From NCBI GenBank assembly GCA_036867785.1, contig CP145413.1:930001-994000 (forward strand): a stretch of DNA of 64,000 bases. Reading direction: 5' to 3'. The DNA is from Plasmodiophora brassicae (taxonomy: Eukaryota). The position numbers and the translations under genes were made by a program. Below the pieces are notes generated by a model. The model ran no database searches and had not been told where the DNA came from. It saw nothing but the letters and a program-made list of their open reading frames with translations. The stretch's first letter is position 1. Each line of letters begins with the position of its first letter. Positions 60,966-61,956 of this stretch are shown one piece after another.

Positions 60966-61956
60966 TTAGTACGAGCGCGTGTTCCCTGCTCCGCGAACGT
61001 TGTCGGCTCCGTACAGGGCTTTCATCGCGTAATACGTCGCCGTCTCTGCCGCTTTTGCTGCCTCATTGGACTCATACGTCGTTACTTGGCCGACGGATTC
61101 TGGAGGGTAACGCCTTGACCACTGGGCACCATTCCCGCTGAAATGCTTATCCATCCGTTCGTCCAATGGAGTCTTCCCCTTGACTATCGGACCTTCACGC
61201 ACCATTCCAACGTATTTCTTCCCATCGGCCTGGTTCAGAGTGTACACGGCAGCAGGTTGGAGGGTGCTCCTGGTGGGCGCAGGGTTCGATGGTGGCTGGG
61301 GGTGTGACAATAACGCTGATGTGGATGTGGCTGCTGGTGCTGATGATGCAGAGGAGCCCTTCGTGTAATGGTACAACGTTATCCCGCCTATAACCGCGAC
61401 GGCAATGCCTGCCCCGGCAAGCATCACTCCACGAGATGGCCATAACGCGGACGAAGGCACGCTCAGTACCACCGGGTTCAAGTCGTCATCGATGCGGACC
61501 CGAACAACGCTAGCGTTCGTCACGATGTTAGTATAAAGCTGGGAGTACACTTTCAAAGGAATAGAGAAATGTCACCTGAGAGGCTGGCCCCGGAAAGACT
61601 GGCCTTCAAGTTTGCACATTACGCCCCATTCCTGGTCACTGCCACAGGGAACGAACGCGAACACGGTCCCATCTTCGTCAGGATAGATGCGGGCGTCGGT
61701 CCTGGCGATCAAGTCGAAAAGTTCGACCGGTGTGGTATTCCCGGGTAAATTGGCTGCCTCAAACATGTCAGCGATTAGCATATGACGACTACAGGATGCG
61801 GTTTGGCAAACATATGACGCAAAGCTGGTTTCCGGGTACCAGCAGGGGGTCATCGGCAACGGGGCGCTGTACCTGAACCGGGGAGGCGGCCTCGCTGTTA
61901 GTAACGACGGGTTCCTGAACAGTACCATTCGCCTGTATCGAACTGCTCGCTCCCAT
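60966..61956 (-). CDS. Predicted 288-aa N-myristoyl / RRM-like / TM / GIY-YIG nuclease fusion; exons 61956-61812, 61753-61576, 61509-60966
   Basis: MGASSS start; CVISNLPGNTTPVELFDL..VFAFV..KLEGQSFRGQPLSV (RRM-like); VMLAGAGIAVAVIGGITLY (TM); AVYTL..KYVGM..ERMDKH..GAQWSRRY..AETAT..YGADNVRG (GIY-YIG); GT-AG introns of 58 and 66 nt keep the frame. Confidence 0.72.

Follow-up and report, generated by a model that had tools for sequence, protein, structure and literature searches.

Does a single locus of Plasmodiophora brassicae encode one protein in which an RNA recognition motif (RRM)-like domain is joined to a GIY-YIG nuclease, or does it hold two products that lie end to end? The locus lies on the minus strand, from 61,956 down to 60,966, of a 64,000-nt stretch of contig CP145413.1 (positions 930,001 to 994,000; hereafter the window, in whose numbering all coordinates are given). 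A first-pass annotation had described it as a hidden spliced gene for a single polypeptide made of an RRM-like block, a transmembrane (TM) helix and a GIY-YIG domain. We found an intact nuclease reading frame, missing from the reference annotation, in phase with an annotated gene of predicted RRM-like fold, and we put the probability that a 288-aa RRM-TM-GIY-YIG protein is made, constitutively or by intron retention, at about 50%.

Two gene models of the locus

Joining the open reading frame (ORF) pieces by their coordinates gave 867 nt and 288 codons with zero internal stops; coordinates, strand, the introns of 58 and 66 nt and the length of the frame were all as originally described. Then, we used the 139-aa ORF lying over exon 2 as a query against 5.8 billion clustered proteins. 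The single match, P0021, is the NCBI entry [quoted passage not shown], 127 aa long, and all of its residues (127/127) are reproduced by a model with three introns (exons 61956-61812, 61753-61576, 61509-61470, and 61408-61388). The parts of the two models are as follows.

61956, minus strand: ATG, annotated start (MGASSS)
61812..61956, minus strand: exon 1, residues 1-48 of PBTT_03701; the MGASSS start, then a low-confidence N-terminal region
61754..61811, minus strand: intron 1, 58 nt, GTTTGC...CTAAT/CTGAC...CAG, phase 1, G+C 0.48
61576..61753, minus strand: exon 2, core of the predicted RRM-like fold (helix 1, strands 2 and 3, helix 2)
61510..61575, minus strand: intron 2, 66 nt, GTGACA...TACTAAC...TAG, G+C 0.41
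60966..61509, minus strand: exon 3 of the two-intron model, 544 nt
61470..61509, minus strand: exon 3a, last predicted RRM-like strand, common to both gene models
61409..61469, minus strand: candidate intron 3, 61 nt, GTACTG...CAG, G+C 0.62, used in the reference annotation
61388..61408, minus strand: terminal mini-exon of the annotated model, six codons and TAG (61390-61388), in a frame different from that of the nuclease ORF

PBTT_03701 and the two-intron model agree over the first two exons and over the initial 13 codons of the third. Introns 1 and 2 are thereby independently confirmed, because both must be removed to reproduce the annotated protein; this includes intron 1, which had been held to be the less certain. 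The gene is indeed spliced but it is not hidden, since its 5′ part is annotated, and a third annotated intron (61469-61409) had been overlooked.

Whether the two parts are made as one protein depends on this third intron. When it is retained, the frame runs on into the 288-aa fusion; when it is spliced, the frame shifts (its length is not divisible by 3), a stop follows six codons on, and the product is the RRM-like part only, 127 aa. The annotated product consequently has neither the hydrophobic segment nor the nuclease, because the frame shift leads to the early TAG. The candidate intron contains both the ATG at 61424-61422, with which the nuclease ORF opens, and a homology break at 61436/61435 (see below), and its coding score is neutral.

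The lengths and the low G+C of introns 1 and 2 fit published P. brassicae introns. In the accessible part of one survey, 86 introns have a median length of 55, a mean of 55.7, and a standard deviation of 7.0 (PMC2483917), and a composition column there, whose heading is not visible, reads 49.87%, which is about half G+C either way; the accessible part of another paper mentions introns of 60 bp (PMC4471660). Intron 2 is itself in frame, its single interruption being a TGA at 61574-61572. A splice-site model built from the window did not separate intron 3 from introns 1 and 2: the candidate introns fell into 58 groups whose donor hexamers varied widely, and the model was too noisy. Among in-frame alternative introns that would delete the hydrophobic segment and keep the nuclease, there were 12 arithmetic candidates, with support for none.

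N-myristoylation acts on proteins whose true N-terminus exposes Met-Gly, with a small third residue and with Ser or Thr as the sixth. The annotated start, MGASSS, fits this pattern provided that neither of two upstream in-frame ATGs (62013 and 61995, minus strand) is used. Between these ATGs and MGASSS there is no stop; the nearest one upstream of them is at 62205. The Gly would not be N-terminal if the mRNA included either ATG.

An intact GIY-YIG nuclease lies in the 3′ part

The 3′ part of exon 3 holds an ORF in which a hydrophobic segment, a Ser/Ala/Pro linker, and a minimal GIY-YIG domain follow each other. Numbering of residues is that of the exon 3 translation, P0001.

60966..61424, minus strand: nuclease ORF, unannotated, 152 codons, with its own ATG at 61424 and TAA at 60968-60966
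~61346..61429, minus strand: hydrophobic, TM-like segment; best 19-residue window at residues 27-45 of P0001
60969..61256, minus strand: GIY-YIG domain, about residues 85-180 of P0001

A search of the same 5.8 billion clustered proteins with P0001 retrieved 17 relatives, which together with P0001 gave a family alignment of 18 sequences. The closest relative, P0004 (151 aa; 91% identical by BLASTP, 95% in the alignment), begins at the Met matching ATG 61424. The remaining 16 relatives, 32-57% identical, are free-standing (102-218 aa) and mostly have basic low-complexity N-termini. All of the 18 invariant columns are kept in the P. brassicae ORF, including Y89, Y99-V100-G101, R118, H122, and E155; by analogy with the family, R118 would have the catalytic role and E155 would bind the metal. 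A V-R-G-A-G-x-T motif follows, and the ORF ends 10 residues past it. Of the "NVRG" signature that had been called conserved, V-R-G is invariant but the preceding Asn is found in 8/18 aligned members. The paralogue P0004 is intact too: its sole indel relative to P0001 is in frame, and none of the six substitutions between them within the domain falls on an invariant column.

The assignment to the GIY-YIG superfamily, already made in the first pass, was borne out by profiles and folds. P0001 alone matched PF01541 at 15.7 bits (E 0.019), below the gathering cut-off of 22.6 bits, but the same Pfam family was matched by 18/18 members at E<=0.1, the best at 1.5e-13. Against solved structures, the family profile matched two bacterial UPF0213 proteins, 1zg2 (E 2.8e-11) and 1ywl (E 3.1e-11), whose GIY and YIG motifs align with Y89 and Y99-V100-G101, and gave a weak match to the SLX1 structure 7wme (E 0.036). 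The AlphaFold model computed with the 18-sequence alignment had a pLDDT of ~84-93 over residues 81-180, above 90 over most of the domain. Its fold matches in PDB were weak (E from 0.047 upward), with 1zg2, 1ywl, and the UvrC structure 1yd6 on top. In BFVD, 24 matches reached E<=0.001 and most of the named entries were GIY-YIG nucleases or endonucleases; where an organism was named it was mostly a giant virus, in which the domain is multi-copy, and several of these proteins combine GIY-YIG with a CCHC zinc knuckle. Judged from its sequence, the domain is genuine and intact and belongs to the minimal Slx1/UPF0213 class. By analogy with other Slx1-like enzymes, it would cut nucleic acid via a Tyr/Tyr/Arg/His/Glu site.

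Codon usage is that of the host. The domain scored 0.28 in frame, at the 35th percentile of the in-frame host windows (mean 0.30, SD 0.20, n=118) and above 236/236 out-of-frame host windows; exon 2 scored 0.26 in its own frame. The nuclease ORF thus looks like an established coding gene.

Other assignments were tried. A lead to Tox-URI2 (PF15653) from the Atlas language-model features, at 0.94, was dropped, as 0/18 family members match PF15653 at E<=0.1. P0001 had no match in PHROG at E<=0.01; among four proteins scanned there, P0006 and P0012 gave weak homing-endonuclease matches, over the first motifs only. A search with seven family sequences returned one locus from a prokaryote genome collection (PAZD01000047.1, 2818-3414), 37% identical, an ORF with GIY-YIG and zf-CCHC. 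Its contig is A+T-rich, belongs to a metagenome-assembled genome labelled Acidimicrobiaceae, and carries neighbouring ORFs with no family matches; we suspect that it is misbinned, and the protein resembles the giant-virus proteins of the fold search. A subgroup of the relatives, P0014-P0020, has a second conserved N-terminal region before GIY-YIG, present also in the ORF of that contig; P0020 begins, instead, with a strongly hydrophobic leader (Kyte-Doolittle 2.53).

For the hydrophobic segment of the P. brassicae ORF, the Kyte-Doolittle mean was 2.11 over 19 residues, above the usual threshold of 1.6 for a single-pass helix, so that the TM prediction made earlier stands on hydropathy.

The 5′ part has a predicted RRM-like fold

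The spliced PBTT_03701 product was modelled by AlphaFold with no alignment. The best model (pLDDT 67.7; the other four 36.0-56.6) has a beta-alpha-beta-beta-alpha-beta core over residues 44-114, with predicted elements E44-51, H57-64, E70-73, E79-84, H88-95, and E108-114. The first strand is encoded by the last codons of exon 1, and all three exons contribute strands, a finding that again favors the splicing. Residues 14-32 have pLDDT <50, and the region after MGASSS is probably disordered.

In a Foldseek search against PDB, every match whose description names a domain was an RRM or RNA-binding domain (three others are unnamed chains of large complexes). These matches include 1wg1 (E 6.5e-4), raver1 RRM1, RBM7, ALYREF, and Y14; two reach E<=0.001, and the target-normalised TM scores are ~0.55-0.68. 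The Atlas language-model features pointed to RRM_1 clusters at 0.90 in 15/30 matches, a level that shuffled proteins reach in 4-10% of cases. The RRM-like block of the first-pass annotation is thus upheld as a predicted fold, with moderate confidence, but not as a Pfam RRM: at E<=10, no Pfam family, RRM_1 (PF00076) included, matched exon 2, the exon-2 ORF or the spliced 127-aa protein. NCBIfam returned nothing for P0021 and nothing for P0001.

Sequence relatives are equally absent. Against 1.84 billion representatives, phmmer gave three matches to P0021 at E<=0.001, namely P0021 itself and two others rejected as spurious, one of which is a WD40 protein by Pfam, the other a papain-family protease. 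When the exon-2 peptide served as query in a word-indexed search, no candidate emerged among proteins of 31-102 aa, and against PDB sequences phmmer gave one non-significant match (E 0.34), to an RRM protein, which was not used as evidence. By these searches the module is a sequence orphan, apparently lineage-specific. Compared by eye with the consensus, the RNP2-like stretch keeps Asn-Leu and has Val where Phe or Tyr is usual, and the RNP1-like stretch keeps Gly and one Phe, without the leading Lys/Arg and one aromatic. The aromatic positions of both motifs therefore look degenerate, and RNA binding is putative.

A second copy marks the boundary between two modules

The 5′ part of the locus is found a second time at the end of the window.

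63683..64000, minus strand: RRM copy 2, partial, covering exon 2 through exon 3a with intron 2 between them, then the initial 34 nt of candidate intron 3

Copy 2 is 96% identical to 61436-61753, extends off the end of the window, and comes without the nuclease module. Its intron-2 donor is GTAACG, as first noticed. The two copies differ at 8/178 nt in exon 2 (seven of the differences nonsynonymous), at 5/66 in intron 2, and at 0/74 over 61436-61509. With 7/8 nonsynonymous differences, the exon 2 comparison suggests that copy 2 is a pseudogene or is fast diverging.

The homology stops at 61436, within candidate intron 3 and 11 nt upstream of ATG 61424. By our own estimate over the 544-nt exon 3, a random break in a fusion gene that already existed would fall this close to the first ATG of the nuclease with a probability of ~2%; for this reason we read the locus as a junction of two modules of separate origin.

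Past the break, copy 2 diverges into a near-perfect palindrome (foldback) of ~1.09 kb at 62593-63683, which abuts the break point. Its inner arms (62729-63069 and 63096-63436) are 96% complementary around a 26-nt spacer, the outer arms 83-99%. Each arm has an ORF with a Cys-x2-Cys-x3-His-x4-Cys knuckle-like motif, for which Pfam gave no match at E<=0.1.

Is the fused protein made?

The reading that we favor, with the rough probability of one half given above, is that one transcription unit joins the two modules, and we infer one mRNA spanning both. The first module would be PBTT_03701, coding for a small lineage-specific protein that starts with MG, is disordered at its N-terminus, and has a divergent RRM-like fold built across introns 1 and 2. 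The second would start 11 nt before ATG 61424 and bring the hydrophobic helix, the Ser/Pro linker, and the minimal Slx1/UPF0213-class GIY-YIG nuclease. As the modules are in a common reading frame, mRNAs that keep 61469-61409 would encode the 288-aa chimera; those without it would encode the 127-aa RRM-like protein alone and would lose the nuclease ATG too. The fusion would then be either the constitutive product, intron 3 being an annotation artefact, or an intron-retention isoform.

Some features of the locus agree with this. The nuclease core is translatable only from ATG 61424 or from upstream, the later in-frame ATGs (61205, 61154, and 61025) being located inside the catalytic core or beyond it. 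In composition, candidate intron 3 resembles an exon (G+C 0.62 versus 0.48 in intron 1 and 0.41 in intron 2). In addition, the one strongly A+T-rich patch was found directly after the nuclease stop.

60917..60957, minus strand: A+T-rich patch, 40-nt window with G+C 0.25

This value falls under 0.40, the first percentile for 40-nt windows across the whole window, and after the annotated stop at 61388 there is no such patch, the minimum G+C being 0.45. The patch resembles a 3′-end region, which suggests that the mRNA would run through the nuclease ORF. The annotated early stop could have been forced by soft-masking of a low-copy nuclease family. The PBTT_ locus tags are used in papers on the Pb3A telomere-to-telomere reference and, in the accessible part of its description, that genome was soft-masked by RepeatModeler and RepeatMasker before annotation, then annotated with BRAKER3 from in-planta RNA-seq and protein evidence, the longest isoform alone being kept (PMC11191646).

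A number of observations weigh against the fusion. In the only public gene model, 61469-61409 is removed as an intron and the protein ends at 127 aa, which contradicts the single polypeptide that had been proposed. The annotation used RNA-seq and protein hints and kept the longest isoform, so that a 288-aa isoform, had one been predicted, would have survived; moreover, a terminal exon of 21 nt is one that ab initio prediction would be unlikely to choose, a hint that reads support intron 3. No fused protein, and no other protein of RRM-TM-GIY-YIG architecture, was found among the 5.8 billion clustered proteins or the 1.84 billion representatives, and in the literature on GIY-YIG with "RNA recognition motif" no such fusion was seen, by title, among the matches listed. 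None of the free-standing nuclease homologues (102-218 aa) carries an RRM, and the hydrophobic leader of P0020 fits a stand-alone leader-plus-nuclease gene, while the break 11 nt before the ATG argues that the second module arrived as a complete gene. As for the parts themselves, 1/5 AlphaFold models of the RRM-like part exceeds pLDDT 60; the hydrophobic segment has no confident structure or helix in AlphaFold (pLDDT <50); and the codon score of the TM and linker stretch is neutral (0.00). With a single TM helix, moreover, the nuclease would end up on the non-cytosolic face of the membrane, an odd location for an enzyme that acts on nucleic acids.

The locus may instead contain two separate genes, a serious but less probable alternative. 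PBTT_03701 would end at 127 aa, and the nuclease ORF would be an independent missed gene of 152 aa, transcribed from a start inside the 3′ part of PBTT_03701; its hydrophobic N-terminus would be a signal peptide or anchor, and the product a secreted or membrane-bound Slx1-like nuclease. The end of the RRM copy homology at 61436 agrees with this, as do copy 2, in which the RRM module occurs without the nuclease, the 16 more distant relatives, all free-standing and one of them (P0020) with a leader, and the ORF itself, which has host-like codon usage and is followed at its own 3′ end by an A+T-rich patch. The start of P0004 at the same Met agrees too, although it was picked by an ORF caller and proves nothing. 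However, the start and first five codons of such a gene lie inside the annotated last intron, and the next seven codons overlap the terminal exon in another frame; an internal promoter would be needed, because the start lies within the last intron of the upstream gene. Furthermore, BRAKER3 with RNA-seq called no gene here, and the putative leader has no charged n-region in its sequence.

We consider it improbable that the nuclease ORF goes untranslated, as a passenger. It would then be a GIY-YIG gene copy of selfish or viral origin that inserted at the 3′ end of PBTT_03701, lies now in the 3′ untranslated region, may be masked as a low-copy repeat, and is open across the junction by coincidence. 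In favor of this, neither the ORF nor its paralogue P0004 is among NCBI-sourced proteins, an open frame over ~15 codons in the right phase has by our own estimate a chance of ~1 in 6, the named structural relatives are mostly from giant viruses with the domain in multiple copies, and the neighborhood is rearranged (the 1.09-kb palindrome and the partial copy 2), but the 152 codons are intact with all 18 invariant residues, the host-typical codon usage, above 236/236 out-of-frame windows, is unexpected for a recent A+T-rich viral import, the paralogue is intact with its indel in frame and its substitutions avoiding invariant columns, and the A+T-rich patch comes exactly after the nuclease stop codon.

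Returning to the fusion, we also considered a more specific history, which we regard as unlikely. A GIY-YIG nuclease of giant-virus type would have been domesticated in a plasmodiophorid by in-frame fusion to a lineage-specific RRM-fold gene, and the 61-nt intron that contains the original start would act as a splice switch between a small soluble RRM-like protein, when spliced, and a chimera anchored by lipid and helix, when retained. The roles suggested in the first-pass annotation, as a nucleic-acid sensing defence protein, an effector or mobile-element cargo, are conjectural.

Locus setting and significance

The gene content of the window (Nrap, NOT2/3/5, and Kelch genes; G+C ~0.6) indicates eukaryotic nuclear DNA. 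An Rfam scan of the window gave no match. Beyond the nuclease ORF, the neighboring gene is a beta-lactamase-family ORF (59387-60547), and the spacer between the two has two tandem copies of a ~19-nt motif at ~60760-60800 (minus strand). Literature searches returned nothing naming "PBTT_03701" and nothing combining "Plasmodiophora brassicae" with "GIY-YIG".

If the fusion is made, a new gene would have arisen here through the capture of a giant-virus kind of nuclease, and an intron would decide which of two quite dissimilar proteins is produced; the organism, the agent of clubroot, is a crop pathogen that cannot be cultivated and whose gene models are still debated. On a conservative reading, a nuclease gene that is intact and has host-like codon usage is missing from the P. 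brassicae reference annotation, as is at least one paralogue of it, and the annotation may have cut PBTT_03701 short. The localization of a nuclease with a leader or anchor helix is of interest in itself in a plant parasite that lives inside cells. No long-standing question is touched; the value of the finding is moderate and hinges on RNA evidence that is already public.

Comparison with known systems

Both parts of the locus belong to known kinds, the 5′ part to the RRM fold in divergent form and the 3′ part to the minimal Slx1-like GIY-YIG nucleases. What the first-pass annotation observed is confirmed and its interpretation is partly supported, the joint architecture being putative. The predicted fold of PBTT_03701 shares the beta-alpha-beta-beta-alpha-beta topology of the RRM domains of raver1 (RRM1), RBM7, ALYREF, and Y14. 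Unlike in typical RRMs, the aromatic RNP positions appear mostly replaced, as in protein-binding RRMs.

For the nuclease, the closest known proteins are the UPF0213/Slx1-like ones (BH0048, 1zg2, and EF2693, 1ywl), which are the best profile matches and the top two PDB folds of the P. brassicae family. Because the profile matches both at ~3e-11, we place the family in the Slx1-like cluster; in the accessible part of Dunin-Horkawicz et al. (2006, PMC1564403), the "Slx1 cluster, non-Eukaryota" is a minimal GIY-YIG form with no C-terminal Asn. Shared features are the motif order (Tyr, Tyr-x-Gly, Arg-x3-His, G-x-G-A, Glu), the want of a conserved C-terminal Asn (8/18 here), and a small domain with unstructured extensions. 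Unlike these proteins, the P. brassicae family adds the invariant C-terminal V-R-G-A-G-x-T; the P. brassicae member and P0005 have a 9-residue insert after the second Tyr motif, and the former is fronted by a hydrophobic helix, as predicted, by a Ser/Pro linker, and possibly by an RRM-like domain.

Eukaryotic SLX1 belongs to the same GIY-YIG subclass and was matched weakly (7wme, E 0.036; 6seh; 6sei). SLX1 joins GIY-YIG to a RING finger, whereas the nuclease ORF has none (no Pfam RING match) and shows no sign of an SLX4 partner; with no C-terminal RING, and with just 10 residues left in the ORF past the nuclease motif, an orthodox SLX1 identity was rejected. A free-standing homing endonuclease of the I-TevI/Seg type, in which a linker and a C-terminal DNA-binding domain come after the nuclease domain, was rejected too, given the lack of a C-terminal extension and of a conserved Asn.

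The best structural matches are the GIY-YIG proteins of giant viruses (Nucleocytoviricota), with E from 6.5e-9 to 1e-6, 21-34% identity, and, for most, an rmsd of ~2-3 A over ~92-99 columns. Terrestrivirus, Yasminevirus, Klosneuvirus, Orpheovirus, and Marseillevirus are among the sources in BFVD, including proteins with GIY-YIG and a CCHC zinc knuckle. The P. brassicae domain differs from the viral proteins in having no trailing CCHC knuckle and in its host codon usage, and it differs from most of its relatives in carrying a hydrophobic leader where they have basic low-complexity N-termini.

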